64,000 bases of DNA from sequence record MN508614.1, one strand, 5' to 3'. How positions within the stretch are numbered: position 1 is the first letter of the stretch; every line of letters begins with the position of its first letter. Source of the DNA: Escherichia phage ES12. A model generated the notes under the pieces. The model was not told where the DNA came from. It was given only the letters and a program-made list of their open reading frames with translations, and did not search any database. Shown here in pieces: positions 11,346 through 61,653 of this stretch. Made by a program: the position numbers and the translations under genes.

Positions 11346-11349
11346 ATGG

Positions 11350-11357: not shown

Positions 11358-11384
11358 AATCATATAAACCAAAAGGAAAGCGCA

Positions 11385-16160: not shown

Positions 16161-16778
16161 ATGTACCACTTTGTATATGAAACAACAAATCTAATAAATG
16201 GTAAAAAGTATATAGGAAAACACTCTACTGATGACTTGAATGATGGTTACCTTGGTTCCGGTAAGGCAATTCAGCAGGCTATAAAGAAATATGGTGAAAA
16301 CAATTTCTCTAGAACAATACTAAAAGAGTTTAAAACTTCCGAAGAAGCGTACATGTATGAAGAAGAAATTATAACTCCTGAAATAATAAAAAGCAAAAAT
16401 TATTATAATATGAAACCCGGTGGAATTGGTGGAATTGTTATGACTACAGAGGTTATAGCAAAGATGAAAGAATCTTCCGCTAAGAGATTTGAAAACTCAC
16501 CGGGCACGGTATTAGGTACAACTTGTTACACTAATGGAACTAAAAATATTTTTATTAAACCTGGAGAACTTGTTCCAGAAGGATTTGTAAAAGGGATGGT
16601 TCATCCTAATAGAAAGTCCAGAAAAGGATGTAAAGTCAAACCGACTACCACAGGAACTTTTTGGGTCAATAATGGTGCAATAAATAAATTAATACAGCCA
16701 GACGGTATTATTCCCGACGGATTTATTAAAGGTCGTCTCATGAAAAGAGATTCTAAAGGCAAATTTAGTAAGGCATAA
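16161..16778 (+). mobile_element. segE: freestanding GIY-YIG homing endonuclease (SegE-like)
   Basis: 205 aa; GIY-YIG motifs (GKKYIGKH ... YYNMKPGG); lies between inh and uvsW on the opposite strand, as T4 segE. Confidence 0.85.
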
Positions 16779-27142: not shown

Positions 27143-27195
27143 CCTCATGTTATGTCAGTAAGACTACTATAACACAACACGAGGGACTTGTAAAC
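27143..27195 (-). promoter_or_regulatory. early promoter plus leader module (GTTTAC-N18-TATAGT), copy A, upstream of alt.-3-like gene
   Basis: Minus-strand GTTTACAAGTCCCTCGTGTTGTGTTATAGT followed by leader and RBS; 52-nt match to 43101-43153. Confidence 0.65.
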
Positions 27196-39018: not shown

Positions 39019-39251
39019 AGTACGCCATACACCCTTTGTGCTTCAACTAATCCATCAAAATCCAGTTTAAGATGCGATATTTGATCGCCATCACCTGGAT
39101 TCACAATTACTAATACTGAACGAGGAGTTTCGGTAATAACACGAACCGACGTTTCAGGAAATCGTTCAGAAACCTTATTTACCAATTCTTGAGCAAATAG
39201 TTTAACTTTTTCTTGGAATTCTTTAACAGTAATTGGTTTTTCGCTTAGCAT
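39015..39251 (-). CDS. hypothetical protein (cd.2 position)
   Basis: 78 aa ORF. Confidence 0.55.
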   Translation of the reverse strand: MLSEKPITVKEFQEKVKLFAQELVNKVSERFPETSVRVITETPRSVLVIVNPGDGDQISHLKLDFDGLVEAQRVYGVL

Positions 39252-39772
39252 GTTGATCCTAGCTCCTTACTTTCAACATTTTTAACTAATTTGACAGAAA
39301 CTAATTCAGCATCTTGGGTAATCATTACCGGACCTTCTTCATGCTCTTCAAGATATTCTAGAGCTTTCTTTTTAGCTTCTTCCTTCGTATCAGTTTGAGC
39401 ATAGATATAGAACATACAACCAGTAATACCTACTACTTTCCACTTAATTTCTTTATCAGTTTTAATTTCAAATTTACTTACAGAATCATCTTTTTGAACT
39501 TCTTCGAAAAAAGAATATTCTAACATATAAGCAATTGAAAATAACGGGCTAACTTTATAGGATTCACCCATTACATCAACAGCTTTATACCAACAATCAT
39601 CAATTTCACGTTTAATGCTAATAACATTTTTCGCAGGATCTATTTTTACTTTAAATGAATTTTCCCCAATAAACTGGGCAATTCGTTTATTAGCCCCGCA
39701 AGTTTCATTAAAAATATCTTTATATCCAGCTTTAAAGCGATAAACCTTATCTTCTTCAAACCATTCGCTCAT
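39245..39772 (-). CDS. hypothetical protein (cd.3 position)
   Basis: 175 aa ORF. Confidence 0.6.
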   Translation of the reverse strand: MSEWFEEDKVYRFKAGYKDIFNETCGANKRIAQFIGENSFKVKIDPAKNVISIKREIDDCWYKAVDVMGESYKVSPLFSIAYMLEYSFFEEVQKDDSVSKFEIKTDKEIKWKVVGITGCMFYIYAQTDTKEEAKKKALEYLEEHEEGPVMITQDAELVSVKLVKNVESKELGSTC

Positions 39773-40313: not shown

Positions 40314-41721
<1,408 letters not shown>

Positions 41722-41725
<4 letters not shown>

Positions 41726-43156: not shown

Positions 43157-44744
<1,588 letters not shown>

Positions 44745-44771
44745 AATAAAATGGGCCTTGCGGCCCACTCC

Positions 44772-45950
44772 TTAAAAGTATTTTTTAAAACTCATCATAA
44801 CTTTATCATCAACATCATTATCAATCTGTGCAACAAGATAAGATGACAGTTCTACTTCTTGTGGCGCTGATTGAACATTATCAGAATTAAGATATTCACG
44901 AATCCAAGGATATGGATGTTTAACCGGAGCATCGGTAATTGGGCATGGAAGACCACACTGTTTCATACGAGATACAGTTAAGTAATCAATAAAGCTCCAC
45001 ATGCTATTTGTATTTAATCCAGGAACATCGCCATCTTTAAATAAATGAACTGCCCAATCTTTTTCTTGGCGGTTAACTTCCATGAAAATATCAACTGCTT
45101 CTTGCTCGCACTCTTGAGCAATTTTAACCCATTCATCGCCATCAGTGCCAAGTTGAAGTTGACGAATAATATATTGGGTGCCTTTAAGGTGAAGCTGCTC
45201 ATCACGAGCAATGAACTTCATAATCTTGGCATTACCTTCCATGATTTCCATGTTCTTATGGAAGTTAAAGGTACATGCGAAAGATACATAAAAACGAATA
45301 GCTTCTAAGGCATTAATAACGTGCAAACAGAGGTAAAGAGATTTCATTAACTCACGCTTCCAATATGTCTCATGCTCAATAGCATCTTCAATAACGTCTT
45401 CGTCTGCATTAATTTCTTTTTGGTATTCGATATCAGCTTTAGCGTTTTCCCAATAACGAGTTTTAATCAGAACATCATCATAATAACGTCCAATGGATTC
45501 AGCACGTTTCATAATAGCTTCATCTAATACAATCTCATCAAATACCTTTGACGGATCAGTATAAAGATTTCGCATGATATGAGTGTATGAACGACTGTGA
45601 ATAGTTTCACTAAAAGTCCATGTAGCAACCCATGTATCAAGGCTTGGGTCTGAAATTAATGACATAAGTACAGCAGACGGCGCACGACCCTGAATGCTAT
45701 CCAAAAGTGATTGATACTTCAAGTTGTTAGTAAAAATATTTTGCTGATACTGAGGAAGCTTATTAAACTGTGCAGCATCCATCATTAAGTTTACTTCTTC
45801 CGGGCGCCAGAAAAATGATAAGGACTTTTCTGTAAGTTCTTCAAATACTCGATGCCGTTGAATATCATAACGCGCAATACCAAGACCTGAACCAAAAAAC
45901 ATAGGTTCTTTTAAAACATCAACTGGATTTGTATTAAAAACTGTGCTCAT
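44772..45950 (-). CDS. nrdB: ribonucleotide reductase small subunit NrdB, uninterrupted
   Basis: 392 aa continuous ORF; no intron interruption seen. Confidence 0.93.
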   Translation of the reverse strand: MSTVFNTNPVDVLKEPMFFGSGLGIARYDIQRHRVFEELTEKSLSFFWRPEEVNLMMDAAQFNKLPQYQQNIFTNNLKYQSLLDSIQGRAPSAVLMSLISDPSLDTWVATWTFSETIHSRSYTHIMRNLYTDPSKVFDEIVLDEAIMKRAESIGRYYDDVLIKTRYWENAKADIEYQKEINADEDVIEDAIEHETYWKRELMKSLYLCLHVINALEAIRFYVSFACTFNFHKNMEIMEGNAKIMKFIARDEQLHLKGTQYIIRQLQLGTDGDEWVKIAQECEQEAVDIFMEVNRQEKDWAVHLFKDGDVPGLNTNSMWSFIDYLTVSRMKQCGLPCPITDAPVKHPYPWIREYLNSDNVQSAPQEVELSSYLVAQIDNDVDDKVMMSFKKYF

Positions 45951-46001
45951 AAATTTTCCGCTTAGTTAATAGTTGGTGACTCGTCCATGAGTCAAATTAT
46001 A

Positions 46002-48266
46002 TCATAATTTACAGGATGAACAATCTTCAGCTTTTGGAGTTTCTATTTCATAATCATCAGTACCAGAACCATCACGGGTATTATGATAATAGAAATTTTT
46101 AATGCCATAATACCATCCGTATAGCATGTCATCAATCATTATTGACATTGGAACCTTTCCTTTTGGAAAAATCTGCGGGTCATAGTATGTATTCGCTGAA
46201 GCTGATTGACATACCCATTTCAGCATAATAGCTACCTGCGTAAGATAAGGTTTATTACCTTTCTTAGCTAATTTCCATGTATAATCATAGAGGTCTATGT
46301 TATGCTCAATATTGGGCACGACTTGATTAAAGGAGCCCTCTTTTGATTCTTTAACAGAGACTGGTCCACGTGGAGGCTCGATACCGTTTGTACTGTTAGA
46401 AACTTGGGAAGATGACTCACATGGCATAAGTGCTGATAATGTGCTATTACGGATGCCAAAGAGCTTAAGGTCTTCCCGCAGCGACGACCAGTCACAAACG
46501 TATTTTGGAGCTGCGATTTGGTCAATCTTTTTATTGTACCAGTCGATAGGTAATTCGCCTCGAGACCAACGAGTGTCTGAATAATATTCGCAAGGTCCTT
46601 TTTCTTTGGCGAGCTTAATGGATGCTTTAATGAGCCCATACTGTAATCTCTCAAATAGTTCATGTGTTAAATCGTTAGCATCTTCATAAGAAGCAAAGTT
46701 ACTTGCCAGCCAAGCTGCATAGTTGGTAACACCTACACCGAGGTTACGGCGCTTTTTAGCTTTTTCTGCTTCAGGAACTGGATATCCTTGGTAATCCAAA
46801 AGATTATCAAGAGCACGAACTTGAACTTCTGCCAATTCATTAATTTTATCTTGGTCTTGCCAGTCAAAATTATCTAGTACGAATGCAGAGAGAGTACACA
46901 ATCCAATTTCAGCATCAGGACTATTCACATCATTTGTTGGAATAGCAATTTCACAACACAAGTTACTCTGACGAATAGGCGCCTTTTCACGAATAAACGG
47001 AGTATAGTTATTCGTATTATCAATGAACTGCACATAAATCCTTGCGGTTCCTGAACGTTCAGTCATGAGCAATTCAAATAGTTCACGGGCTTTAATACGC
47101 TTTTTACGAATATTAGGGTCTTTTTCTGCTGCTTCGTATAATTCACGGAAACGGTTTTGGTCTTTAAAATAAGAATAATAAAGCTCGCCACCCATTTCAT
47201 GTGGACTGAACAAAGTAATGTAATCGTTCTTTCCGAATCGTTCCATCATCAAATCATTCAGTTGAACACCATAATCCATATGACGAATGCGGTTTTCTTC
47301 TACGCCTTTGTTATTTTTCAAAACGAGAAGATTTTCAACTTCCAAATGCCAAATAGGATAATAAGCAGTAGCAGCGCCGCCACGAATTCCGCCCTGTGAG
47401 CATGATTTAACAGCAGTCTGAAAATGTTTCCAAAAAGGAATAACACCAGTATGACGCACTTCACCCATGCCAATCTTAGAACCTTCGGCACGAATCATAC
47501 CAACGTTAATACCAATTCCAGCACGTTTGGAGATATATTCAACAATTGAAGCAGAAGCCTTATTAATAGACTTTAATGAATCACCTGCCTCAATAACAAC
47601 GCATGAACTAAACTGCCGAGTTGGAGTACGGCAACCAGCCATAATAGGAGTTGGTAATGAAATCTGTCGAGTAGATACTGCTTCATAAAAACGAATAACA
47701 TGTTTTAATCTATCAACAGGTTCATCTTGATGCAATGCCATTCCAATAGTCATAAATGCAAACTGTGGAGTTTCATAAATTTGACCAGTGGTTTTATCTT
47801 TAACTAGATATTTTTCTTTTAATTGCATCGCCCCGGAATAAGTAAATTCCATATCCCGCTCGTGCTTAATTTTTGATTCTAAAAATGTAATTTCTTCTGC
47901 TGAATATTTTGACAATAATTCAGGGTCATATTTACCTTCATTTACACAGTAAGAAATATGGTCAATAAATGAACGTGGTTCATACTGCCCATAAACATGC
48001 TTACGAAGAGCAAACATTAAACAGCGTGCAGCTACATATTGATAATCAGGTTCTTCAACCGAAATAGAATTCGCAGCGGCCTTAATGACAATAGTCTGAA
48101 TATCATCAGTTGTCATTCCATCACGGAGATAAGATTTAATATTTTCATATAATTCATAAGGATCTACTGATGTTCCCTCAGCTGCCCAAGATAAAACTTT
48201 AATAATTTTTTGCGGGTCAAAGCTCTGAGAAACACCACTACTTTTGATAACATTAATTAATTGCAT
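46002..48266 (-). CDS. nrdA: ribonucleotide reductase large subunit NrdA
   Basis: 754 aa; active-site NLCCEI and C-terminal CSSC redox pair. Confidence 0.95.
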   Translation of the reverse strand: MQLINVIKSSGVSQSFDPQKIIKVLSWAAEGTSVDPYELYENIKSYLRDGMTTDDIQTIVIKAAANSISVEEPDYQYVAARCLMFALRKHVYGQYEPRSFIDHISYCVNEGKYDPELLSKYSAEEITFLESKIKHERDMEFTYSGAMQLKEKYLVKDKTTGQIYETPQFAFMTIGMALHQDEPVDRLKHVIRFYEAVSTRQISLPTPIMAGCRTPTRQFSSCVVIEAGDSLKSINKASASIVEYISKRAGIGINVGMIRAEGSKIGMGEVRHTGVIPFWKHFQTAVKSCSQGGIRGGAATAYYPIWHLEVENLLVLKNNKGVEENRIRHMDYGVQLNDLMMERFGKNDYITLFSPHEMGGELYYSYFKDQNRFRELYEAAEKDPNIRKKRIKARELFELLMTERSGTARIYVQFIDNTNNYTPFIREKAPIRQSNLCCEIAIPTNDVNSPDAEIGLCTLSAFVLDNFDWQDQDKINELAEVQVRALDNLLDYQGYPVPEAEKAKKRRNLGVGVTNYAAWLASNFASYEDANDLTHELFERLQYGLIKASIKLAKEKGPCEYYSDTRWSRGELPIDWYNKKIDQIAAPKYVCDWSSLREDLKLFGIRNSTLSALMPCESSSQVSNSTNGIEPPRGPVSVKESKEGSFNQVVPNIEHNIDLYDYTWKLAKKGNKPYLTQVAIMLKWVCQSASANTYYDPQIFPKGKVPMSIMIDDMLYGWYYGIKNFYYHNTRDGSGTDDYEIETPKAEDCSSCKL

Positions 48267-48583
48267 AAGTCCTCAACTTGAAAATCGTCTTTAAACAATC
48301 GGTTAACTATATGAGCTATTATATCACCATGACACGGCTTTGGTTTACATGTGCATCCTAGCCTCATTCCACGTAAAGGCTCTAAATGTGCTTTAGTTAT
48401 TTCTCTGGATTTAATTCGACGTATAAAATCTTTTTTGAATAATTCAATGGCAGCCTCCCGGCTGCCAGCATCTTTACCGACGTAATTTCCCCAAAATGTA
48501 CCACGGTGAATATTAACATCAAAGTCGGATTTGTATTTATTCACTACCCGACATAGACGGCCCGCGCGGTGATAATTCGGCAT
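48257..48583 (-). CDS. hypothetical protein (nrdA.1 position)
   Basis: 108 aa ORF. Confidence 0.6.
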
Positions 48584-48800
48584 ATTGTTTTTCCGTTAAA
48601 ACAGTAATATCGTAGTAACAGTCAGAAGAAGTTTTAACTGTGGAAATTTTATTATCAAAATACTCACGAGTCATTTTATGAGTATAATATTTTTTGCCAT
48701 AAATGATAATAGGCTGATTTGGTCCTGGAACTTCTAGCTCACTTGGATTAGGAAGTGTAAAAAGAACTACACCAGAAGTATCTTTAAATCGTAAAATCAT
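48537..48800 (-). CDS. hypothetical protein (nrdA.2 position)
   Basis: 87 aa ORF. Confidence 0.55.
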
Positions 48801-49657
48801 ATTGCCATTTTCCCTTTAATTGCTGGATGCGATTCATAATTTTCAAGGATAAAATCTTTCGGTTTCATGTATTCAGTTAACCAGTAAAGCTGTGTTTCGG
48901 TGTCACAATTTCCAAACTCTATAGGCCAATCAATTTTAAGTTCACATAGTTCTTTAGGCTCACGACGTAAAATTTCTTTACATTGCTCAGTATGATTCAT
49001 ATAGATGTGAGTATTACCACCAGAAAATATCAAATCTCCTGGGATAAGATTACACATCTTAGCCACAATATGCGTCAAGGCAGCGTACGAGGCAATGTTG
49101 AATGGCAATCCCAAGAAAACATCTACACTTCTTTGGTACCATTGTAAATCAAGATAACCATTACGCACATTAAACTGATAGAACATATGACAGGGCGGTA
49201 ATGCCATTTGATTGATTTCAGCTGGATTCCATGCTGAAACGATTTGACGTCGATCAGTTGGTAATTTTTTAATACGATCAATAGTTTCAACTAATTGATC
49301 CACACCGCCGAAATCACGCCATTGTTTACCGTATATAGGACCAAGTTCACCACTATGATATCCTAGGTCTTTAGCCTGGTTTTCATAGTTATCGTCCCAA
49401 ATAGTTTTACCTTGAATAAGACTACCATGTGTGCGAAGACGTAAATCATTAACATTGGTAGAACCGGAAATAAACCATAGAAGCTCAGCAATGCATGCAT
49501 TCCATGCAAGCTTCTTAGTTGTTACCGCAGGAAAACCTTTAGTTAAATCCCAACGTAATTTAGTACCGAACAAAGCAATTGTTCCTGTGCCTGTTCGGTC
49601 ATCGGTTTCATAGCCATTTTCAAAAATGTCTTTAATTAAATCTTGGTATTGTTTCAT
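48797..49657 (-). CDS. td: thymidylate synthase, uninterrupted
   Basis: 286 aa continuous ORF; catalytic Cys motif [10 protein letters not shown]; no intron. Confidence 0.95.
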
Positions 49658-49702
49658 TTAGTACCTTATATAAATTATAATACATTTTATGAAGCTAAAT
49701 AA

Positions 49703-50050
49703 TCAATACGGTTTAGCATCAAATTTTCTCTCAATTTCAGGCGTGAAATATAATTCTTTACCGCGTTTGGAAAAGCGACCAATAATATGATAATTATTCT
49801 CATCAAACGTGATATTACCAATATCCATAGCTTTCAACCAAATATCGATATTTCTATCCAGCTTTATGTCAAAATTCCAATACAGAGAACTATTACCGAA
49901 AATACTGCAAGCGGATTCAGTGAAACAACTGCTATAAATCTTGTCTTTAGGAACTACTAATTGATAGACACCTTTAATAAACTGAGGACCCTGCCACTTT
50001 GGCTGTTTCGTGTCTTTTTCTAATAGAATAGGGTAATAATTAAAATTCAT
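49703..50050 (-). CDS. hypothetical protein between frd and td (about 115 aa)
   Basis: Track ORF 49703-50062 uses a GTG start; first ATG gives MNFNYYPILLEKD...; no recognisable motif. Confidence 0.55.
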   Translation of the reverse strand: MNFNYYPILLEKDTKQPKWQGPQFIKGVYQLVVPKDKIYSSCFTESACSIFGNSSLYWNFDIKLDRNIDIWLKAMDIGNITFDENNYHIIGRFSKRGKELYFTPEIERKFDAKPY

Positions 50051-50070
50051 ATTTTCCGCCACGTGTTATT

Positions 50071-50900
<830 letters not shown>

Positions 50901-50910
50901 ATTATTTTCC

Positions 50911-51153
50911 TCAAACAGACTTTTTCACAATTTTCCAATCAGCTTTAAACTGATCAACATCAGAATGATAAATCCAGAATCCTGCGCTTTCTCCGTCTTC
51001 ATAAAGAGGACATCCATCACATTCATCTTCCCATCCCATGCCACGTAAAAGGTGTTCAGCTTTTTCAACAAGTTCAGAATCTTTACCGATGATATTAAAA
51101 TACCATTTACCTCTAACTTCTGAATCTTTGATGCTCTGGCGTTGTAATCTCAT
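50911..51153 (-). CDS. hypothetical protein (frd.2 position)
   Basis: 80 aa ORF downstream of an early promoter. Confidence 0.55.
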   Translation of the reverse strand: MRLQRQSIKDSEVRGKWYFNIIGKDSELVEKAEHLLRGMGWEDECDGCPLYEDGESAGFWIYHSDVDQFKADWKIVKKSV

Positions 51154-51262
51154 TTTATTCTCCTTAGCAAGCTTTAATCAAAAGATATAAACAGACCAAC
51201 ATAACTGCTGCCATAATATAAGGTGCGAACATTTTCTTTTCTCCATTAGTTTTGATAGGGTA

Positions 51263-51292
51263 ATAGTATCACACTACTACCCTTCTGTAAAC
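51263..51292 (-). promoter_or_regulatory. early promoter (GTTTAC-N18-TACTAT) upstream of frd.2-like gene
   Basis: Minus-strand GTTTACAGAAGGGTAGTAGTGTGATACTAT. Confidence 0.5.
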
Positions 51293-51657
51293 TACTTTTT
51301 GAAAGTTTTTCGCAAAAGTTCAATGATTTCATCTACATTGTTTTCGTCAACAATGCAGTGAATTTTTGTTACGCCAGAAACTTTGTCTTTGACTTCATCT
51401 TCTTCAGAAGTCGGTTCTTTATACTCACGAAAACAATGAAATTCGTCTTCACAAACGTTAAAGTAAAAATGCTTTCCATTTGCGCATTCAATGTGTTTTA
51501 TTACTCTAAATCCATCAACAAAGAAAGCTTCTTTAACTTCAAACCATCCGCCATTTTCTTGAATAATTTTAACTATTGCTGAATTAGAACGTGGGCGATA
51601 ATTAATAAATGTATCAATAAGTCTTGGAACAAGTTCATACTTTTTACCGATATACAT
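51292..51657 (-). CDS. hypothetical protein
   Basis: 121 aa ORF. Confidence 0.55.
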   Translation of the reverse strand: MYIGKKYELVPRLIDTFINYRPRSNSAIVKIIQENGGWFEVKEAFFVDGFRVIKHIECANGKHFYFNVCEDEFHCFREYKEPTSEEDEVKDKVSGVTKIHCIVDENNVDEIIELLRKTFKK

Positions 51658-51701
51658 TATGTTTTCCTCATTTTAACGGGGCTGTAATAGCCCCTTGATA
51701 A

Positions 51702-51992
51702 TTATTGTTCAATCAATCCCATGTAAAATTCTGCGTCTTCAGAATCCATACCATCACAATATTCATTAGCCATAAAGCGGGTGAGGTCTTCAAGAGGACC
51801 TTCAATAACGATTTGAATACTCCAAAACTTAGAATCTTGCACGCTTGTGATACTAAGTTCAGGATAACGATTACGAATAATTTCTTCGATATATTCAAAA
51901 TCAACGATGTCAATATCAACTTTAGCCATATTATTTTCCTCTTTAATCATCAGCAGTATTGCCGATAGTTGTATAGTACCATGGAAGGACAA
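51702..51992 (-). CDS. hypothetical protein
   Basis: 96 aa ORF (possible internal start MAKVDIDIV). Confidence 0.5.
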
Positions 51993-52073
51993 GGATGTAA
52001 ACCGTTTTGTGAAAAAATTTTTGAAATAAAAAGGGGACCTCTAGGGTCCCCAATTAATTAGTAATATAATCTA

Positions 52074-52979
52074 TTAAAGGTCATTCAAAAGGTCATCCAG
52101 GTCTGTGTCATCAGCACTAGATGAACTGCCAGAGCTTGAGCTCATAAAATCATCTTCAGTTTTTGTATTGAAGTCATCAACATTGAATGCATCCAAATCA
52201 TCAGCAACTTTATCAGCTTTCTTAGCAGCAGTTGCAGCAGCACCGCCCATCACAGCAGTTCCCATAACTTGACCGAATTTAGTGCTCAGTTCTTCAAACG
52301 ATTTGAATTTATCTTTAGAAGTCATTTCAGAAAGGTCAACCATTTGTTCGAACAGTTCTTTCTGGAAAGATTCATCGTCAATGTTTGGAATCGCAGATTG
52401 ATTCAGGAATTTAGATTCGTCGTAGTTACTAAATCCAGAAACCTGTTTAACTTTCAGTACAAAGTTAGCACCTTCCCACGGACAAGTTACATCAACCGGA
52501 GTTTCACCCATTTCAACATCAACCGCAATCATCGCGTTGATTTTATCCCAGATTTTCTTACCGAAACGATATTTAAATACTTTACCTTCATTTTCTGGAG
52601 CAGCTGGGTCTTTTACAACAAGAATATTAGCCCAGTAAGAAGTTTTACGTTTAACAAGACTGTACTCTTTATTGTCAGTGTTGTACAGATCATTTTTACT
52701 GATGTACTGACATACTGGACAAGAATCGTAATCACCATGGGTAGATGAACATGTTTCAATATACCATTTACCATTTTTCTTGAAACCGTGATTTACAAGA
52801 ATTGCGAATGGTGCTTGTTCATCATTTTTAGACGGAAGAAAACGAATTACTGCTTGACCGTTACCCGCATTATCGAGTTTCAGTTTCCACTCGCCTTTAT
52901 CTTCAGAAGAAAAACCTTTATTGCCATTCAGTTTAGCCATTTGTGCAGCAAGTTCAGCAGTAGATTTACGTTTAAACAT
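52074..52979 (-). CDS. 32: single-stranded DNA-binding protein gp32
   Basis: 301 aa, recognised as T4 gp32 ([36 protein letters not shown]...; acidic C-terminus). Confidence 0.97.
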
Positions 52980-53060
52980 TTTATTTCCTTTTTAATTTAA
53001 TTTAATTTAATTAACAGTTGGTGCTATGACACTTTACCTCATAGCTGGCATAATTCGCAA
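52980..53060 (-). promoter_or_regulatory. gene 32 translational operator (UUAAA repeats plus upstream pseudoknot-forming hairpin)
   Basis: Minus-strand RNA ...GCUAUGAGGUAAAGUGUCAUAGC...UUAAUUAAAUUAAAUUAAAUUAAAAAGGAAAUAAAAUG; matches the known T4 gp32 autoregulatory site architecture. Confidence 0.75.
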
Positions 53061-53671
53061 TACTCTGGGTCTTCGAGAGGTATCCAACCTGAGTTGAAAT
53101 ACTTTACCATCGATTTAGCAGTTGTATCAGTTATATTTATATTACCTTTAACTCTTCGCCATCCAGGAGTTTTACCGTACAGATTAGAGGATAATAATAA
53201 CACATAATTCTCGTAAGCAATATGAGATAATTTCCAAGACTCTATATTAGCTCGTGATGTTTTCCAAGGTCTAAAATCGTCACGGTTCATATAATTAGCC
53301 AATCTCATATGCTCTCTAACTTCCGGGTCTTTGGCTGGATGAGTTTCACCACTCACACCAAATCCACCACCAGCATATACCAGATTAAAATAGTCTGGAT
53401 TATCTCTGGCATTTACTTCAAGTTGGTATTTTCGTTCTGCTTCAATAACATCCAAGTCATCATCAATTTGAATTATTTTAACGCTCGGTTTTTGAAGCAT
53501 TAGCGCATTCAAAAATCTTTTTTGTTTACATGAGCTCCAGTATTCCTTTCCGGAAGAGTCATATATTATTCCATTCTCAAATGAGCAATTTAATTTACTA
53601 CCGATATAGTAGTATGGCGGAGTCTTATTTTTGACACGGTCTTCAAATGTAAACCAATATACTATATTCAT
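53039..53671 (-). mobile_element. segG: freestanding GIY-YIG-like homing endonuclease (SegG-like)
   Basis: 210 aa; N-terminal IVYWFTF ... YYYIGSK GIY-YIG-like motif; lies between 59 and 32 as T4 segG. Confidence 0.7.
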
Positions 53672-53672
53672 A

Positions 53673-54326
53673 TCAATACTTACAAGATTTCACAGTTTCA
53701 ATGAAAACACTTTTAGCTTTCTGTGAATCAATATTTAAAATTTTTCTATAAGCCTTTAACTTTATAGAATAATTATTCCAGACTAAATTATCAGTCTGTT
53801 CATCATGTTTATCAATTATATTTAAAAACGAATCAAGCAAGATAAACGTTTCAAACGAAATTATATTCGATTGAAGTAGTTTAAAAATATAACTTGATTG
53901 AACTTTTGGATTATACTCAAAGATTTCTTTAAAAGCAGAAACTTCAACTTTTTTACTAAAATAATAAATGTTGCGAATATCTTCTTCAAACTTAAATTTA
54001 ATTTGCTTTAAGCGTCCGATATATTCACGATAAAACACAAGTGCATCAGCGTCAGAGATGTCACCAATCCAAGCATCCTGGTTGGCAACCAAATTGCTTA
54101 TAAAGATTAAAGCAAGTTCCTTTAATTTATATTTTTCTGATAACTTCTGGAAAAAATACTTATCCCTTCGCTTTTGATAAGCGGCATCAGACACCCGCAT
54201 GCACCAATTATACTTAATAACATCATACTTTCCATTCATATGTTGTTTTATCATTAAGTATAATTTATAAACTGATTTACCATCAATGTATCTTTCACCA
54301 CCAGCAGGCATGCGGAGTTTAATCAT
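53673..54326 (-). CDS. 59: helicase loader gp59
   Basis: 217 aa, same length as T4 gp59. Confidence 0.93.
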   Translation of the reverse strand: MIKLRMPAGGERYIDGKSVYKLYLMIKQHMNGKYDVIKYNWCMRVSDAAYQKRRDKYFFQKLSEKYKLKELALIFISNLVANQDAWIGDISDADALVFYREYIGRLKQIKFKFEEDIRNIYYFSKKVEVSAFKEIFEYNPKVQSSYIFKLLQSNIISFETFILLDSFLNIIDKHDEQTDNLVWNNYSIKLKAYRKILNIDSQKAKSVFIETVKSCKY

Positions 54327-54661
54327 AGTAGAAAATCTAATGTATTAGTTTTTTCACAACGAACAACAGAAGGACGTAAAAGATTTTCGTCAATAGCTTC
54401 TGACTGAATTTTTTCAATTATACCCGAAGGAATAAATTTAGCAAATTGAGTTTCAGGAATAGAATTTTCTTCTAAGAATGCTGTTGTAGCTTCGAGATAA
54501 CTCATTCCAAACTCTTCTACCATTTTTTCAATAATAAATCCATTTTCTTGGCGGTCAAGAAGCTTTGCTATTTCATCCTTTTCTTTCTTAATTGAAAGTT
54601 CTTTTTCTGAAAGACCGGTCTCATCGACCGGACGAATATCATTTAGAGAAAACTGTGTCAT
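54323..54661 (-). CDS. 33: late transcription co-activator gp33
   Basis: Start at internal Met MTQFSLNDIRPV gives 112 aa as in T4. Confidence 0.85.
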   Translation of the reverse strand: MTQFSLNDIRPVDETGLSEKELSIKKEKDEIAKLLDRQENGFIIEKMVEEFGMSYLEATTAFLEENSIPETQFAKFIPSGIIEKIQSEAIDENLLRPSVVRCEKTNTLDFLL

Positions 54662-54908
54662 AAAGTTCAACTACCTCTTCAGTTTCAGCTTCAAACACAT
54701 CACGGTTATCTTTATGATACAAAGCTAATAGACGATTAAACATCTTACCATCAACGCCAAGTTCATCTTTGGCACGAATTCGAATATCTTTAATCAGTTC
54801 ATTATAACCGGAAATTTTCAGTTTATGGTCAGATGCTTCTTTAATAAATTTAGCCAAGTCTTCGCCATGGATAGCTTCATCAAATTCAACTATTTCTTTT
54901 TTAGCCAT
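54639..54908 (-). CDS. dsbA: DsbA dsDNA-binding protein
   Basis: 89 aa ORF between rnh and 33. Confidence 0.8.
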   Translation of the reverse strand: MAKKEIVEFDEAIHGEDLAKFIKEASDHKLKISGYNELIKDIRIRAKDELGVDGKMFNRLLALYHKDNRDVFEAETEEVVELYDTVFSK

Positions 54909-54916
54909 TATTCACC

Positions 54917-55834
54917 TCAAAATTCATTAATGCTATTAGTTAATTTAGAAAGACCTGCTTTTACAAAATATGAATAAATTTTGCCACGCGGTGGTAATTT
55001 ATATGAATTATAGTAATTCACAATGTTTGAAGCAATATTATCAGGAATATAATCAAAATCAATTAGAACTAAATTTTCTTTATAACGATTATATTCAGAT
55101 TCTGTGAGAAGCACCTTAGCTTGCTCACGGTCATTAGCAATAGCTTCAACGATTGAAGTTTTCATTGAAGGAGTCCGTTCACCTTCAACTCTGGTAAACC
55201 AAAAGTCAGAACGTACTTTAACTGAAGCAACGTTATCCTTTTTGTCACCCTTAAGAATTTTAGTCATACAATCAATTTCAGCAGAACCGCTTTTAATTTT
55301 AACCCATTTCTTGTGCATCGGTGACCATTGCTTAACATTTGGGTATTTGTGAAGTTGAGTAAAGTCACCATCCGATGAAATGATTAAAATCTTATGCCCT
55401 TCTAAAGAGAACTTTTTAACAAGAACAGCAATATGGTCATCTGCTTCATACTTATCAATATCCATAACGATGTATGGCATATAAGCTTTCAATTCATCTA
55501 TAACTTTATGACTGGATTCAAAATAACCTTCCCAGTCCCAAGTAGATTCTTCTCGTGCTTTTCCACGGTTTTTCTTATAATAATAAGCGAAATCACGACG
55601 CCAGTATCCAGATTTCGCGTTATCAATACACAGTACAATTTTAGTGTATCCAAGCGTTTTTGCTTTTTTGACATTAAACTTAATTGAGTTCAATATCAAA
55701 TGACGAACCATTGATAAATTAATTTTTTCTTTATCTGGGAAGTTTACCAGAGCAGTTGAAAGAGCAATTTGACTAAAGTCAATAAAGCAAATTCCTTCTT
55801 TGTAATCTTCATCCAGCATCATTTCTAAATCCAT
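54917..55834 (-). CDS. rnh: RNase H (5'-3' exonuclease, FEN family)
   Basis: Start at internal Met MDLEMMLDEDYKEG gives 305 aa; early promoter upstream. Confidence 0.93.
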   Translation of the reverse strand: MDLEMMLDEDYKEGICFIDFSQIALSTALVNFPDKEKINLSMVRHLILNSIKFNVKKAKTLGYTKIVLCIDNAKSGYWRRDFAYYYKKNRGKAREESTWDWEGYFESSHKVIDELKAYMPYIVMDIDKYEADDHIAVLVKKFSLEGHKILIISSDGDFTQLHKYPNVKQWSPMHKKWVKIKSGSAEIDCMTKILKGDKKDNVASVKVRSDFWFTRVEGERTPSMKTSIVEAIANDREQAKVLLTESEYNRYKENLVLIDFDYIPDNIASNIVNYYNSYKLPPRGKIYSYFVKAGLSKLTNSINEF

Positions 55835-55861
55835 ATGAACCTCGTTCAATTAGTGAGATTT

Positions 55862-55893
55862 CTATTATATACTATCTAAATCTTAAAGTAAAC
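55862..55893 (-). promoter_or_regulatory. early promoter (GTTTAC-N18-TATAAT) for rnh
   Basis: Minus-strand GTTTACTTTAAGATTTAGATAGTATATAAT upstream of rnh RBS. Confidence 0.6.
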
Positions 55894-55896
55894 AGG

Positions 55897-55904
55897 TATA
55901 AATA
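55897..55904 (+). promoter_or_regulatory. late promoter TATAAATA (gene 34)
   Basis: Exact TATAAATA in the rnh/34 divergent region. Confidence 0.7.
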
Positions 55905-55938
55905 CTTATTATTGAAAACACAATAGGAGCCCGGGAGA

Positions 55939-58900
55939 ATGGCCGAGATTAAAAGAAAGTTCAGAGCAGAAGATGGTCTGGACGCAGGTGGCGATAAAAT
56001 AATCAACGTAGCTTTAGCTGATCGTACCGTAGGAACTGACGGTGTTAACGTTGATTACTTAATTCAAGAAAACACAGTTCAGCAATATGATCCAACTCGT
56101 GGATATTTAAAAGATTTTGTAATCATTTATAATAATCGTTTTTGGGCAGCAACGGATAATATTCCAAAACCTGCTGGAAATTTTAATAGAATTCGTTGGA
56201 AAGCATTACGTACTGATGCCGTATATACAACCGTATCATCTGGACCATATCAATTAAAATCCGGAGAAGCAATTTCAGTAGATACATCAGTTGGCAATGA
56301 CATTGAGTTTACTTTACCACCTTCTCCGCTTGATGGAGAAACCGTAATAATTCAAGATATCGGTGGAAAACCTGGCATAAATCAGGTTAAAATAAATTCT
56401 TCAAATCAGAGTATTGTCAATTTTAGAGGTGAACAGGTACGTTCAGTTTTAATGACTCATCCAAAGTCACAGATGGTATTCATTTTTAATAATCGTTTGT
56501 GGCAAATGTATATTGCTGATTATAGCAGAGAAGCTGCGATTGTTACTCCATCGACTGCATATCAAGCACAATCTAATGATTTTATCGTACGTAGATTTAC
56601 TTCTGCCGCACCGATTAATGTTAAACTTCCAAGATTTGCCAATCATGGAGATATCATTAATTTCGTTGATTTAGATAAATTAAATCCACTTTATCATACA
56701 ATTGTCACGACATATGATGAAACAACTTCAGTACAAGAAGTTGGAACTCATTCCATTGAAGGCCGTACATCGATTGACGGTTTCTTGATGTTTGATGATA
56801 GTGAAAAATTATGGAGATTGTTTGACGGGGATAGTAAAGCACGTTTACGCATTATAACGACTAATTCAAACATTCGTCCAAATGAAGAAGTTATGGTATT
56901 TGGTGCGAATAATGGAACAACTCAAACGATTGAACTTCAGCTTCCAACTAATATTTCTGTTGGTGATACTGTTAAAATTTCCATGAATTACATGAGAAAA
57001 GGACAAACAGTTAAAATCAAAGCTGCCGGTGAAGATAAAATTGCTTCTTCAGTTCAATTGCTGCAATTCCCAAAACGCTCAGAATATCCACCTGAAGCTG
57101 AATGGGTGACTGTTCAAGAATTAGTTTTTAACGGTGAAACTAATTATGTTCCAGTTTTACAGCTTGCTTATATTGAAGATTCTGACGGAAAATACTGGGT
57201 AGTACAACAAAACGTTCCAACAGTTGAAAGAGTCGATTCTTTAAATAATTCTACTAGAGCAAGATTAGGCGTAATTGCTTTAGCTACACAAGCCCAAGCT
57301 AACGTCGATTTAGAAAATTCTCCACAAAAAGAATTAGCAATTACTCCAGAAACATTAGCTAACCGTACTGCTACAGAAACTCGTAGAGGTATCGCAAGAA
57401 TAGCAACTACTGCTCAAGTAAATCAGAACACTACATTCTCTTTTGCTGATGACCTTATCATCACTCCTAAAAAGCTGAATGAAAGAACTGCTACAGAAAC
57501 TCGTAGAGGTGTTGCTGAAATTGCTACGCAGCAGGAAACTAATACAGGTATCGATGATACTACAATCATCACTCCTAAAAAGCTTCAAGCTCGTCAAGGT
57601 TCTGAATCATTATCAGGTATTGTAACTTTTGTATCTACCGCAGGAGCTACCCCAGCTTCTAGTCGTGAATTAAATGGTACAAATGTTTACAATAAAAACA
57701 CTAATAATTTAGTTGTTTCGCCTAAAGCACTGGATCAGTATAAAGCTACTCCAACACAGCAAGGTGCAGTAATTTTAGCAGTTGAAAGTGAAGTAATTGC
57801 TGGACAAAGCCAAGAAGGATGGGCAAATGCGGTTGTAACGCCAGAAACGTTACATAAAAAGACATCAACTGATGGAAGAATTGGTTTAATTGAAATTGCT
57901 ACGCAAAGTGAAGTTAATACAGGAACTGATTATACTCGCGCAGTCACTCCTAAAACTTTAAATGACCGTAGAGCAACTGAAAGTTTAAGTGGTATAGCTG
58001 AAATTGCTACACAAGTTGAATTCGACGCAGGCGTCGACGATACTCGTATCTCTACACCATTAAAAATTAAAACTAGATTTAATAGTACTGATCGTACTTC
58101 TGTTGTTGCTCTATCTGGATTAGTTGAATCAGGAACTCTCTGGGACCATTATACCCTTAATATTCTTGAAGCAAATGAGACACAGCGTGGTACACTTCGT
58201 GTAGCTACACAAGTTGAAGCTGCTGCAGGAACATTAGATAATGTTTTAATAACTCCTAAAAAGCTTTTAGGTACTAAATCTACCGAATCGCAAGAAGGTG
58301 TTATTAAAGTTGCAACTCAGTCTGAAACCGTGACTGGAACGTCAGCAAATACTGCTGTATCTCCAAAAAATTTAAAATGGATTGTGCAGAGTGAACCTAC
58401 TTGGGCAGCTACTACTGCGATAAGAGGTTTTGTTAAAACCTCATCTGGTTCAATTACGTTCGTTGGTAATGATACAGCTGGTTCTACGCAGGACTTAGAA
58501 CTATATGAGAAAAATGGTTATGCAGTATCACCATATGAATTAAACCGTGTATTAGCAAATTATTTGCCGTTAAAAGCAAAAGCTGCTGACGCAAATTTAT
58601 TAGATGGTCTAGATTCATCTCAGTTCATTCGTAGGGATATTGCCCAGACAGTTAATGGTTCACTAACCTTAACCAAACAAACGAACCTGAGTGCCCCTCT
58701 TGTATCATCTAGTACTGCTACGTTTGGTGGATCAGTTTCAGCAAATAGTACATTAACTATTTCTAATACTGGAACGGCAACTCGTCTGATTTTTGAGAAA
58801 GGACCTCAAACTGGAACAAACCCAGCTCAAACGATGACAGTCAGAGTGTGGGGAAATCAATTTAGTGGGGAATCAGACACAACACGTTCTACCGTATTTG

Positions 58901-59808
58901 AAGTTAGTGATGAAACGTCTAGTCATTTTTATTCTCAGCGTAATAAAGCTGGAAATATAACATTTAATATCAACGGTACAGTAACACCGATAAATGTTAA
59001 TGCTTCAGGAACATTGAATGCAAATGGTGTAGCAACATTTGGTAATTCAGTCACTGCAACTGGTGAAATTATTTCTCGAAGCGCAAATGCTTTCCGTGCT
59101 ATTAGCGGAAATTATGGTTTCATTGTTCGCAATGACGGGTCAGTAACGAATTTTATGCTTACTGCATCGGGTGATCAGACTGGTGGATTTAATGGATTAC
59201 GTCCATTGTCCATTAATAATCAATCTGGGCAGGTCACAATTGGTGAAAGCTTGATCATTGCTAAAGGTGCTACTATAAATTCAGGTGGTTTAACTGTTAA
59301 CTCGAGAATTCGTTCTCAGGGTACTAAAACCTCTGATTTATATACCCGTGCGCCAACATCTGATACAGTAGGATTCTGGTCAATCGATATTAATGATTCA
59401 GCCACTTATAACCAGTTCCCGGGTTATTTTAAAATGGTTGAAAAAACTAATGAAGTGACTGGACTTCCATACTTAGAACGTGGTGAAGAAGTTAAATCTC
59501 CTGGTACATTGACTCAGTTTGGTAACACACTTGATTCACTTTACCAAGATTGGATTACTTATCCAACGACCCCAGAAGCACGTACCACTCGCTGGACACG
59601 TACATGGCAGAAAACCAAAAACTCTTGGTCAAGTTTTGTTCAGGTATTTGACGGAGGTAACCCTCCTCAACCTTCAGATATAGGAGCGATCCCATCTGAT
59701 AATGGAATAATAGGTAATCTTACTATTCGCGATTTCTTGCGAATTGGTAATGTTCGCATTATTCCTGACCCAGTGAATAAAACTGTTAAATTTGAGTGGA
59801 TTGAATAA
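55939..59808 (+). CDS. 34: long tail fibre proximal subunit gp34
   Basis: 1289 aa, same length as T4 gp34; internal repeats; TATAAATA at 55897-55904. Confidence 0.95.
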   Translation: MAEIKRKFRAEDGLDAGGDKIINVALADRTVGTDGVNVDYLIQENTVQQYDPTRGYLKDFVIIYNNRFWAATDNIPKPAGNFNRIRWKALRTDAVYTTVSSGPYQLKSGEAISVDTSVGNDIEFTLPPSPLDGETVIIQDIGGKPGINQVKINSSNQSIVNFRGEQVRSVLMTHPKSQMVFIFNNRLWQMYIADYSREAAIVTPSTAYQAQSNDFIVRRFTSAAPINVKLPRFANHGDIINFVDLDKLNPLYHTIVTTYDETTSVQEVGTHSIEGRTSIDGFLMFDDSEKLWRLFDGDSKARLRIITTNSNIRPNEEVMVFGANNGTTQTIELQLPTNISVGDTVKISMNYMRKGQTVKIKAAGEDKIASSVQLLQFPKRSEYPPEAEWVTVQELVFNGETNYVPVLQLAYIEDSDGKYWVVQQNVPTVERVDSLNNSTRARLGVIALATQAQANVDLENSPQKELAITPETLANRTATETRRGIARIATTAQVNQNTTFSFADDLIITPKKLNERTATETRRGVAEIATQQETNTGIDDTTIITPKKLQARQGSESLSGIVTFVSTAGATPASSRELNGTNVYNKNTNNLVVSPKALDQYKATPTQQGAVILAVESEVIAGQSQEGWANAVVTPETLHKKTSTDGRIGLIEIATQSEVNTGTDYTRAVTPKTLNDRRATESLSGIAEIATQVEFDAGVDDTRISTPLKIKTRFNSTDRTSVVALSGLVESGTLWDHYTLNILEANETQRGTLRVATQVEAAAGTLDNVLITPKKLLGTKSTESQEGVIKVATQSETVTGTSANTAVSPKNLKWIVQSEPTWAATTAIRGFVKTSSGSITFVGNDTAGSTQDLELYEKNGYAVSPYELNRVLANYLPLKAKAADANLLDGLDSSQFIRRDIAQTVNGSLTLTKQTNLSAPLVSSSTATFGGSVSANSTLTISNTGTATRLIFEKGPQTGTNPAQTMTVRVWGNQFSGESDTTRSTVFEVSDETSSHFYSQRNKAGNITFNINGTVTPINVNASGTLNANGVATFGNSVTATGEIISRSANAFRAISGNYGFIVRNDGSVTNFMLTASGDQTGGFNGLRPLSINNQSGQVTIGESLIIAKGATINSGGLTVNSRIRSQGTKTSDLYTRAPTSDTVGFWSIDINDSATYNQFPGYFKMVEKTNEVTGLPYLERGEEVKSPGTLTQFGNTLDSLYQDWITYPTTPEARTTRWTRTWQKTKNSWSSFVQVFDGGNPPQPSDIGAIPSDNGIIGNLTIRDFLRIGNVRIIPDPVNKTVKFEWIE
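57300..58350 (+). repeat. in-frame tandem peptide repeats within gene 34
   Basis: Repeated ...TESxxG(I/V)xxIATQxExxxGxDDTxxITPKKL... units; DNA repeat ACTGCTACAGAAACTCGTAGAGGT at about 57368 and 57488. Confidence 0.8.
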
Positions 59809-59816
59809 GAGGTATT

Positions 59817-60932
59817 ATGGAAAAATTTATGGCAGAGTTTGGACAAGGATATGTCCAAACGCCATTTTTATCGGAAAGCAATTCAGTAAGATATAAAATA
59901 AGCATAGCGGGTTCTTGCCCGCTTTCTACTGCGGGACCATATGTTAAATTTCAGGATAATCCCGTTGGAAATCAAACATTTAGTGCAGGTCTTCATTTAA
60001 GAGTTTTTGACCCTTCTACGGGAGCATTAGTTGATAGCAAGTCATATGCTTTTTCTGCTTCAAACAATACAACATCTGCCGCTTTTGTCAGTTTCATGAA
60101 TTCTTTGTCAAACAATAGACTTGTTGCTATATTAACTAGCGGAAAGGTTAATTTTCCTCCTGAAGTGGTATCTTGGTTAAGGGGAGCAGGAACTTCAGTT
60201 TTTCCATCAGATTCAGTATTGTCAAGATTTGACGTGTCATATGCTGCTTTTTATACTTCTTCTAAAAGAGCTATTGCATTAGAGCATGTTAAACTAAGTA
60301 ATAGAAAAAGCACAGATGATTATCAAACTATTTTAGATGTTGTATTTGATAGTTTAGAAGACGTCGGAGCTACAGGATTTCCTAAAAGAACATATGAAAG
60401 TGTAGAGCAATTCATGTCAGCAGTTGGTGGAACTAATAACGAAATTGCGCGATTGCCAACTTCAGCTGCTATAAGTAAACTTTCTGACTACAATTTAATT
60501 CCTGGTGATGTTCTTTATCTTAAAGCACAACTATATGCTGATGCTGATTTACTTGATCTTGGAACTACAAATATATCTATTCGTTTTTATGATGCATCAA
60601 ATGGATATATTTCCTCGACCCAAGCTGAGTTTACTGGGCAAGCTGGGTCTTGGGAATTAAAAGAAGATTATGTAGTTGTTCCTGAAAATGCAGTAGGATT
60701 TACGATATATGCACAAAGAACTGCCCAAGCAGGTCAAGGCGGCATGAGAAATTTAAGCTTTTCTGAAGTATCAAGAAATGGCGGCATTTCAAAACCTGCC
60801 GAATTTGGCGTCAACGGTATTCGCGTTAATTATGTCTGCGAATCGGCTTCACCTCCAGATATAATGGTACTTCCTACACAAGCCTCTTCTAAAACTGGCA
60901 AAGTGTTTGGGCAAGAATTTAGAGAAGTTTAA
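59817..60932 (+). CDS. 35: long tail fibre hinge protein gp35
   Basis: 371 aa; hairpin terminator downstream. Confidence 0.9.
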   Translation: MEKFMAEFGQGYVQTPFLSESNSVRYKISIAGSCPLSTAGPYVKFQDNPVGNQTFSAGLHLRVFDPSTGALVDSKSYAFSASNNTTSAAFVSFMNSLSNNRLVAILTSGKVNFPPEVVSWLRGAGTSVFPSDSVLSRFDVSYAAFYTSSKRAIALEHVKLSNRKSTDDYQTILDVVFDSLEDVGATGFPKRTYESVEQFMSAVGGTNNEIARLPTSAAISKLSDYNLIPGDVLYLKAQLYADADLLDLGTTNISIRFYDASNGYISSTQAEFTGQAGSWELKEDYVVVPENAVGFTIYAQRTAQAGQGGMRNLSFSEVSRNGGISKPAEFGVNGIRVNYVCESASPPDIMVLPTQASSKTGKVFGQEFREV

Positions 60933-60937
60933 ACTGA

Positions 60938-60964
60938 GGGAGCCTTCGGGTTCCCTTTTTCTTT
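60938..60964 (+). terminator. rho-independent terminator after gene 35
   Basis: GGGAGCC-TTCG-GGTTCCC followed by TTTTTCTTT. Confidence 0.8.
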
Positions 60965-60971
60965 ATAAATA
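60964..60971 (+). promoter_or_regulatory. late promoter TATAAATA (gene 36)
   Basis: Exact TATAAATA after gene 35 terminator. Confidence 0.7.
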
Positions 60972-60994
60972 ATATTAAAATAAAGGGGCATATA

Positions 60995-61645
60995 ATGGCT
61001 GATTTAAAAGTAGGTTCAACTGTAGGTGGATCTGTCATTTGGCATCAAGGAAATTTTCCATTGAATTCAGCCGGTGACGATGTACTCTACAAATCATTTA
61101 AAATATATTCAGAATATAATAAACCACAGGCAGCTGATAACGATTTCGTTTCTAAAGCTAATGGTGGTACTTACACCGGTCCAATTACTATTAATTACGG
61201 GGTAAATAGTTATCTTCAATTAAGTAATAATGAAACCCCCATTCGAATTCGTTCTGGTGGCGGTACCGGTAATACTCTTGTAGTTGGCGGCTCTTCCGGC
61301 GGTATTAGTTTTAGACCTGCAGGTAGTGAAATCACTACTGGACAAATTACTATTACACCAGAAGGTTTGACAACATTTACCAGGGCTGTAACGGCTCCAT
61401 CGGTAACTGTTACATCTACTCCTTCCGCAGCATCTGATGTTACTCGCAAAGATTATGTTGATGGAGCAATAAATACTGTTACAGCAAATGCAAACTCTAG
61501 GGTATTACGCTCTGGAGACACTATGACAGGAAATTTAACTGCGCCAAACCTTTTTTCACAGAATCCTGCATCTCAACCTTCACACGTTCCACGATTTGAC
61601 CAAATCGTAATTAAGGATTCTGTTCAAGATTTCGGCTATTATTAA
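60995..61645 (+). CDS. 36: long tail fibre distal small subunit gp36
   Basis: 216 aa; TATAAATA at 60964-60971. Confidence 0.9.
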
Positions 61646-61653
61646 GAGGACTT

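Follow-up and report, generated by a model that had tools for sequence, protein, structure and literature searches.

The td and nrdB genes lie on the minus strand of the window, by which is meant the whole stretch of DNA analysed (64,000 nucleotides), in a block of phage genes running from frd to denA. The genes and spacer of this block, with the basis for each assignment, are as follows.

50071..50655, minus strand: frd, dihydrofolate reductase, 194 aa (ORF listing, family match)
49703..50062, minus strand: extra ORF between frd and td, 119 aa from GTG or 115 aa from ATG (phrog_1928)
48797..49657, minus strand: td, thymidylate synthase, 286 aa, one continuous ORF (ORF listing and family profiles)
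48537..48800, minus strand: nrdA.2 homologue (DUF5496), 87 aa (ORF listing, T4 record, Pfam)
48257..48583, minus strand: nrdA.1 homologue (DUF4326), 108 aa (ORF listing, T4 record, Pfam)
46002..48266, minus strand: nrdA, class Ia ribonucleotide reductase (RNR) large subunit, 754 aa, uninterrupted (ORF listing, family match)
45951..46001, minus strand: nrdA-nrdB spacer, 51 nt, an empty site where T4 has mobE and nrdB.1 (about 700 nt)
44772..45950, minus strand: nrdB, class Ia RNR small subunit, 392 aa, uninterrupted ORF
44334..44768, minus strand: denA, endonuclease II, GIY-YIG (100% identical to T4 DenA)

Both td and nrdB were found as single ORFs, with coordinates and lengths exactly as the initial annotation of this DNA had given them. 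The td product matched Pfam PF00303 in a single stretch covering the entire profile (1-266 of 266; 320.8 bits against a cut-off of 24.3) and NCBIfam TIGR03284 over residues 2-286 (299.8 bits, cut-off 108.35). Its translation contains the PPCH motif, the conserved site of the thymidylate synthase catalytic cysteine, and the residues surrounding this motif are the same as in T4 Td. For the nrdB product, residues 3-388 were aligned with positions 4-374 of the 376-position NCBIfam profile NF006576 (class Ia RNR beta) at 482.7 bits (cut-off 346), and Pfam PF00268 was also matched in one stretch (126.8 bits). Neither a frameshift nor an unrecognized insertion was found in td or nrdB, as judged from the single-stretch family matches of both proteins and from their alignment with T4. 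Translated directly from continuous ORFs, the two genes need no RNA splicing. The extra ORF of 115 or 119 aa between frd and td, which had not been picked up in the initial annotation, is missing from T4, where frd and td overlap. It was considered as a hidden homing endonuclease and rejected, as it had no Pfam, NCBIfam or PDB match and matched only phrog_1928, a family of unknown function.

In the T4 record (NC_000866) the CDSs of td and nrdB are each split in two and contain I-TevI and I-TevIII respectively, as had been stated for T4 beforehand, with the refinement that I-TevIII is defective. Exon 1 of T4 td is 549 nt long and its intron 1017 nt; the T4 nrdB intron is 598 nt long and carries the I-TevIII relic. 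When the window was compared with T4 by BLAST, the alignment broke exactly at both T4 introns, with about 1021 and 600 extra bases in T4 against 4 and 2 unaligned bases in the window. Alignment of td and nrdB with the T4 exons placed the insertion sites between 49109 and 49108 in td and between 45275 and 45274 in nrdB, and showed no insertion at either site. The introns are absent from both genes, and the description of both as intron-minus alleles was confirmed.

The absence of the intron endonucleases was likewise upheld: no homologue of T4 I-TevI, I-TevIII, MobE or NrdB.1 was matched by tblastn (E<=1e-3) anywhere in the 64 kb, and T4 intron DNA gave only chance matches of no more than 28 nt in the window. 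An Rfam search at the gathering threshold returned nothing in the window, but the introns of T4 itself were also missed at this threshold, which makes that negative uninformative; an E-value threshold was used instead. In this search both T4 introns, serving as positive controls, were found as Intron_gpI (RF00028) at 40.3 and 35.7 bits, and the window gave no Intron_gpI match at E<=1 in 44300-50700 or at E<=0.05 over its full length. The sole GIY-YIG protein of the td-nrdB region is DenA, which is a host-DNA nuclease and not an intron endonuclease. Elsewhere in the window the homing endonuclease genes segE and segG are present. The initial annotation was silent on these two genes; the phage is therefore not free of homing endonucleases.

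The empty insertion sites and the endonuclease target regions that correspond to those of T4 and its relatives are the following.

49108..49109, minus strand: empty td intron site; 49109 is the last exon 1-equivalent base (A, where T4 has T) and 49108 the first exon 2-equivalent base
49096..49135, minus strand: equivalent of the I-TevI homing site, -27 to +13 (T4 alignment; site definition from PMC2988022 and PMC5009752)
45274..45275, minus strand: empty nrdB intron site, GCAT/GTACC (T4 exon alignment)
45288 and 45290, minus strand: I-TevIII cut positions -14 and -16, predicted by correspondence to PMC1865063
45820..45837, minus strand: nrdB nt 114-131, the polymorphic MobE-nick stretch (alignment; PMC2790892)

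Both homing target sites had been described as intact. This was borne out for nrdB, where 68 of the 70 bases from -40 to +30 are those of the T4 exon junction, the only differences being at -5 and -2; the comparison took as its standard the intron-deleted T4 nrdB substrate on which I-TevIII has been tested, around its cut sites and the insertion site, and cleavage is predicted from this sequence. For td the description does not hold literally, though the C and G of the CNNNG motif are kept. Here 11 of 40 bases differ from T4, every change is synonymous, positions -1 and +1 are among those changed, and four of the five bases adjoining the cleavage motif are different. The sequence CAAAG at 49135-49131 stands in for the CAACG of T4, with C-27 and G-23 retained and the spacing as in T4. 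The requirement of I-TevI, as given in PMC5009752, is for the C and G of 5'-CNNNG-3', at -27 and -23 relative to the insertion site. The same paper describes many CNNNG triplets as poor I-TevI substrates, naming only some of them, and together with PMC2988022 it describes the enzyme as tolerating multiple substitutions. A literature search for CAAAG with I-TevI and CNNNG found no data on I-TevI activity at CAAAG.

At the third empty position, the nrdA-nrdB spacer has the same sequence as in T2; the absence of nrdB.1 and mobE had not been mentioned in the initial annotation. MobE nicks T2 nrdB at the polymorphic stretch of nt 114-131 (PMC2790892). In the window this stretch is unlike those of both T2 and T4, and the neighbouring FFWRPEE block is kept.

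The window is essentially ES26 (MN508618.1, Tequatrovirus). The td-nrdB region is 100% identical to that phage over 7 kb, and the ES26 GenBank record and the window differ by one 288-nt repeat unit in hoc. The same gene order is seen in T2 (AP018813), namely frd, a small ORF, td (861 nt), nrdA.2, nrdA.1, nrdA, a 51-nt spacer, nrdB (1179 nt, 392 aa) and denA, and as in the window td and nrdB are uninterrupted and mobE is absent. In homing crosses of T-even phages, T2 has been the classical recipient without introns (PMC2790892). It differs from the window in td (79.5% identical), in nrdB (92.7% identical), in the MobE target stretch and at about ten positions of the I-TevI site. The T4 orthologues also occur in the same order: SegG, like DenA, shows 100% identity, identity is 94-98% for nrdA and the 3' part of nrdB, and no amino acid differs across either insertion site. 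T4 but not the window has the two introns, with I-TevI in that of td and the I-TevIII relic in that of nrdB, as well as nrdB.1, mobE and segD, and T4 NrdB has 388 aa compared with 392 aa in the window. The td and nrdB genes of the window are thus very probably ordinary, functional, intron-less alleles in Tequatrovirus, with empty sites at the T4 intron positions.

The td gene is a divergent allele, at the nucleotide level about 79% identical to each of T4 and T2, and it belongs to a minority class, identity of at least 95% being found in only about 103 of 674 records. A switch of identity to T4 at the insertion sites (84-86% for exon 1 and 94-98% for exon 2) was considered as a footprint of homing. 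This reading was rejected because, when the window was compared with T4 and T2 in sliding 100-nt segments, td divergence extended across nearly the whole gene, T4 and T2 sharing the other allele, and nrdB divergence fell into two patches, 45930-45731 and 45530-45340, neither of them related to the insertion site. Related alleles with introns were also compared. The td gene of phage e11/2 (vB_EcoM_112, KJ668714) differs from that of the window at 25 of 861 positions and contains an intron of 445 nt in which the I-TevI ORF is truncated; 10 of the 25 differences lie between -28 and +9, and all ten are T4-type bases (binomial P = 7e-8). In e11/2, unlike the window, frd and td overlap in the T4 fashion. 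Phage AV121 has a window-like exon 1 to about -50 and is T4-like from there on, with a full 1016-nt intron and I-TevI. The e11/2-type td junction recurs in U5 (AY262155), G8, ESh24 and others, U5 having an ES26-type td with an intron. Since the e11/2 td is of the window's type and carries an intron with a T4-like exon patch, this type of allele has been invaded in nature, and by analogy with these intron-bearing relatives the td site of the window would be susceptible to I-TevI. The patterns in e11/2 and AV121 could be due to ordinary recombination instead of cleavage of exactly this sequence. With its own-allele bases at all ten positions of the e11/2 patch from -28 to +9, the td allele of the window itself looks as though it has never been invaded.

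The substitutions in the td site might instead mark an I-TevI-resistant escape allele, in which synonymous changes were selected for blocking cleavage and the site is empty since it cannot be invaded. The number and position of the changes, all synonymous and affecting both -1 and +1 as well as four of the five bases beside the cleavage motif, are consistent with such selection, as are the many CNNNG triplets left uncleaved according to PMC5009752. Against the divergence of exon 1 alone, the 11 substitutions observed represent a marginal excess (6.5 expected, P=0.05); against the gene-wide divergence they are not enriched (8.4 expected, P=0.21), the whole of td being divergent from T4 and T2. 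Moreover, the critical bases C-27 and G-23 are retained, the same allele type is found with an intron in e11/2, U5, AV121 and others, and the tolerance of I-TevI for multiple substitutions, described in PMC2988022 and PMC5009752, also argues against resistance. An escape allele is therefore considered quite unlikely, and it is similarly doubtful that td would act as a partly resistant target slowing the spread of the td intron. If partial resistance were true, e11/2, U5 and AV121 would represent rare invasions in which the entire patch from -28 to +9 had to be converted.

It is also unlikely that the alleles are secondarily intron-less, ancestral introns having been precisely lost, for instance when an intron-less allele or the cDNA of a spliced RNA recombined with the ancestral gene. 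In the view given in PMC5009752, introns and homing endonuclease genes pass through cycles of gain, decay and loss, and some relatives have truncated td introns, about 260-445 nt long. In nrdB a T4-like history is possible, the exon 2 side being 97.6% identical to T4 and the flanks different at 2 of 70 bases; these flanks are so close to T4 that a site never invaded and one that had lost its intron look alike there. At td, loss by the spliced-RNA route would be expected to leave a donor-type patch, but the window has its own bases at all ten positions; had the td intron been lost through conversion by an intron-less phage, the site could not be told from one never invaded. That real introns were lost in assembly, or that the window is chimeric, is extremely improbable. 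The ES26 GenBank record is flagged UNVERIFIED, and the 288-nt repeat difference in hoc is of the kind that assembly can produce. However, the ES26 record matches the td-nrdB region at 100% identity, the same contiguous layout occurs in hundreds of phages sequenced independently, with 96-98% identity across the 7 kb, and the introns are unique sequence, unlike the repeats that assemblers collapse.

For ordinary intron-less alleles of this kind, we infer that both sites can be cleaved and can serve as targets for homing. If an intron-bearing phage infected the same cell, the expected I-TevI cut would fall at CAAAG, 23/25 nt upstream of the td site, and that of an intact RB3-type I-TevIII 14/16 nt upstream of the nrdB site. 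Repair of the double-strand break would then bring in a copy of the intron and, along with it, a short tract of the donor exon.

Among related phages, td was contiguous in 465 of 674 td-matching records (about 69% without the td intron), and the nrdB site was contiguous in 576 of 704 records (about 82% without the nrdB intron); near-full-length introns were found in 197 records for td and in 118 for nrdB. The statement that the missing introns distinguish this phage from T4 is accurate as a difference from T4, but the trait is not distinctive, as the intron-less state is that of the majority and T2 has the same layout. T4 is the outlier according to reviews (PMC2988022; PMC2993671, Table 5). 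The first evidence that introns are mobile came from T-even phages, some of which have the td and nrdB introns and others not (Pedersen-Lane and Belfort 1987; Quirk et al. 1989; cited in PMC2988022), and in later surveys T4 proved to be the exception. That the intron-less state is usual among T4 relatives has been known since the 1980s; the observation is correct but already known, and the genome is in GenBank. Its value for annotation is that td and nrdB need no joined CDS here, and phages of the ES26 type, with a td site that is 11 of 40 bases off T4, are possible natural recipients for homing experiments.

The interval from the nrdB stop to the td start lies on the minus strand. The genes below are from the ORF listing, and the empty insertion sites from alignment with T4.
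50071-50655, minus strand: frd, upstream of td
49703-50062, minus strand: ORF of 115/119 aa between frd and td
48797-49657, minus strand: td, 286 aa
49109/49108, minus strand: empty td insertion site
48537-48800, minus strand: nrdA.2
48257-48583, minus strand: nrdA.1
46002-48266, minus strand: nrdA, 754 aa
44772-45950, minus strand: nrdB, 392 aa
45275/45274, minus strand: empty nrdB insertion site
44334-44768, minus strand: denA, after nrdB

The td protein matched PF00303 in a single stretch (profile positions 1-266 of 266) and TIGR03284 with 299.8 bits, both above the curated cut-offs. The nrdB protein matched PF00268, also as a single stretch, and NF006576 above its curated cut-off (482.7 bits, residues 3-388). 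Neither translation nor these matches revealed a frameshift or a concealed insertion in either ORF. Together, these end-to-end matches confirmed that td and nrdB are each one continuous ORF, as the initial annotation had proposed.

In the T4 record both genes are annotated as two-piece coding sequences.
T4 td: exon 1 of 549 nt, intron of 1017 nt with I-TevI, exon 2 of 312 nt; junction ...CTTGGGT / CTACCG...
T4 nrdB: exon 1 of 664 nt, intron of 598 nt with a relic of I-TevIII, exon 2 of 503 nt; junction ...TTTGCGT / GTACC...

The BLAST alignment of the window with T4 was interrupted precisely at both T4 intron boundaries; the reading of both genes as intron-minus alleles is correct. T4 also carries nrdB.1 and mobE (~700 nt) between nrdA and nrdB, whereas the window has neither. 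Searches with T4 I-TevI, I-TevIII, MobE and NrdB.1 (tblastn) found no match in the 64 kb, in keeping with the proposed absence of intron endonucleases, and T4 intron DNA gave chance matches only. The intron-less phage T2 (AP018813) has exactly the layout of the window, down to the ORF that separates frd from td and the 51-nt nrdA-nrdB spacer, which is identical. In the window that ORF lies within 402 nt separating frd and td, whereas the two genes overlap in T4. T2, OMNI12 and AV121 have the ORF, T4 and e11/2 do not; its sole match was phrog_1928, a group of unknown function, with none in Pfam, NCBIfam or PDB.

The homing target sites had also been described as intact, which held for nrdB and was overstated for td. 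I-TevI has a recognition site of ~38 bp and makes its cuts 23/25 nt before the insertion site, in a CAACG motif whose C and G are critical (PMC2988022, PMC5009752). From -27 to +13 (upstream and downstream of the insertion site), 11 of 40 td positions differ from T4 (-24, -22 to -19, -1, +1, +3, +6, +9 and +12), so "intact" is not literally true of this site. All 11 are synonymous, leaving the 18-residue peptide the same as in T4, and the motif, CAAAG in the window (49135-49131), keeps its C and G. The last base of exon 1 is A in the window and T in T4. In group I introns, the U at the exon 1 end is one half of the conserved U-G pair that marks the 5' splice site. Because the window lacks this base, an intron inserted here would need donor exon bases, which would presumably arrive automatically with the td intron, since I-TevI cuts upstream of them. 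At nrdB, the stretch from -40 to +30 agrees with T4 in 68 of 70 bases, with mismatches only at -5 and -2. The I-TevIII of RB3 cuts 14/16 bp upstream of this insertion site (PMC1865063); by its sequence, the window has this site essentially intact. In T2 nrdB the MobE nick falls at nt 122-126, inside a polymorphic stretch (nt 114-131) adjoining the conserved FFWRPEE block (PMC2790892). FFWRPEE is retained in the window, but nt 114-131 are unlike those of both T2 and T4.

The window td is a distinct allele. It shares 79% nucleotide identity with T4 and with T2, against 96% between T4 and T2, and is at least 95% identical to td in only ~103 of the 674 phage records it matched. The difference covers nearly all of the gene and is strong in the C-terminal ~45 residues. 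It has the form of a gene-sized mosaic patch, with identity to T4/T2 of ~94-99% over the opening 100 nt of td and back at 92-100% just downstream. Substitutions in the I-TevI site were not enriched over the gene-wide rate (11 observed, 8.4 expected, P=0.21), with a marginal excess over exon 1 alone (P=0.05).

An empty td site could reflect either precise intron loss or a site never invaded, and relatives with window-type td that bear the intron speak to this choice. The td exons of e11/2, whose 445-nt intron holds a truncated I-TevI ORF, show 25 differences from the window in 861 positions; ten of these lie from -28 to +9 around the intron, all with T4-type bases (chance probability of such clustering, 7e-8). 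This patch looks like a short co-conversion tract beginning at the I-TevI cut site. The same junction type is common to U5, G8, ESh24 and others. AV121, with a full 1016-nt intron and I-TevI, has a window-like exon 1 until about -50 and is T4-like beyond. The window td carries no T4-type base at these patch positions, so its site looks never to have been invaded rather than left by precise intron loss; for nrdB, a site never invaded and precise loss cannot be told apart.

The intron-less state was implied to be distinctive; it is instead the majority condition and long known, in a genome already public, and does not set this phage apart. Of the 674 records matched by the window td, 465 covered at least 80% of it in one place and therefore have no full-length td intron there; the T4 td intron matched 260 records (near-complete in 197). 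A 180-nt query centred on the nrdB site matched 704, contiguously in 576 and otherwise breaking precisely at query base 91, the insertion site; the T4 nrdB intron matched 191 (near-complete in 118). Some 69% of relatives thus lack the td intron and ~82% the nrdB intron. Intron-less td and nrdB are already known in T4 relatives: the patchy occurrence of the introns in T-even phages was the first hint that introns are mobile, and in endonuclease content it is T4 that "remains the outlier" (PMC2988022). Among ~40 T4-related genomes, intron-encoded endonucleases occur only in T4, T6, RB3 and LZ2, with a possible relic in JSE (PMC2993671, Table 5).

The phage is not endonuclease-free. The window is syntenic with T4 95.2-156.7 kb and encodes two free-standing GIY-YIG homing endonucleases.
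16161-16778, plus strand: segE, 98.5% identical to T4 SegE
53039-53671, minus strand: segG, 100% identical to T4 SegG

T4 has 789 nt with segD between genes 23 and 24, whereas the window has 60 nt (near 11313-11372) and segD is missing. The 7 kb around td-nrdB are 100.0% identical to ES26 (MN508618.1, Tequatrovirus, Houston sewage) and share 96-98% identity with many other Tequatrovirus genomes. Positions 44000-64000 (including 51000-64000) are 100% identical to ES26, and 1-25000 are identical save one 288-nt repeat unit in hoc (14285-15421, minus strand). Hoc has 378 aa in the window and 474 aa in the ES26 record (flagged UNVERIFIED), where the extra Ig-like repeat is clean and in-frame; the discrepancy reflects either true variation in repeat number or the assembly. 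Two minus-strand ORFs, of 175 aa (39245-39772, between the cd.2 and cd.3 equivalents) and 106 aa (41405-41725, between pseT and pseT.1), lie in DNA missing in T4 and had no NCBIfam match. The alt region (27195-29252, minus strand) aligned poorly with T4, in patches of 68-69% with rearranged segments at ~27215-28904, which suggests that the alt/alt.-1/alt.-2 arrangement differs from that of T4.

At the Rfam gathering threshold the window gave nothing, and neither did the T4 control; as T4's own introns were missed, the window negative at that threshold is worthless. With an E-value threshold, Intron_gpI was recognised in both T4 introns (td, 40.3 bits, E=9e-8, at 10596-10826 of the T4 sequence searched; nrdB, 35.7 bits, E=2e-6, at 5509-5749). 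The equivalent stretch of the window had no Intron_gpI match at E<=1, and the entire window no Rfam match at E<=0.05. Both T4 scores fall below the Intron_gpI gathering score of 50, so default Rfam scans miss these classic ORF-containing introns. Intron screens of T4-like phages should allow for T4-type introns scoring below the gathering score.
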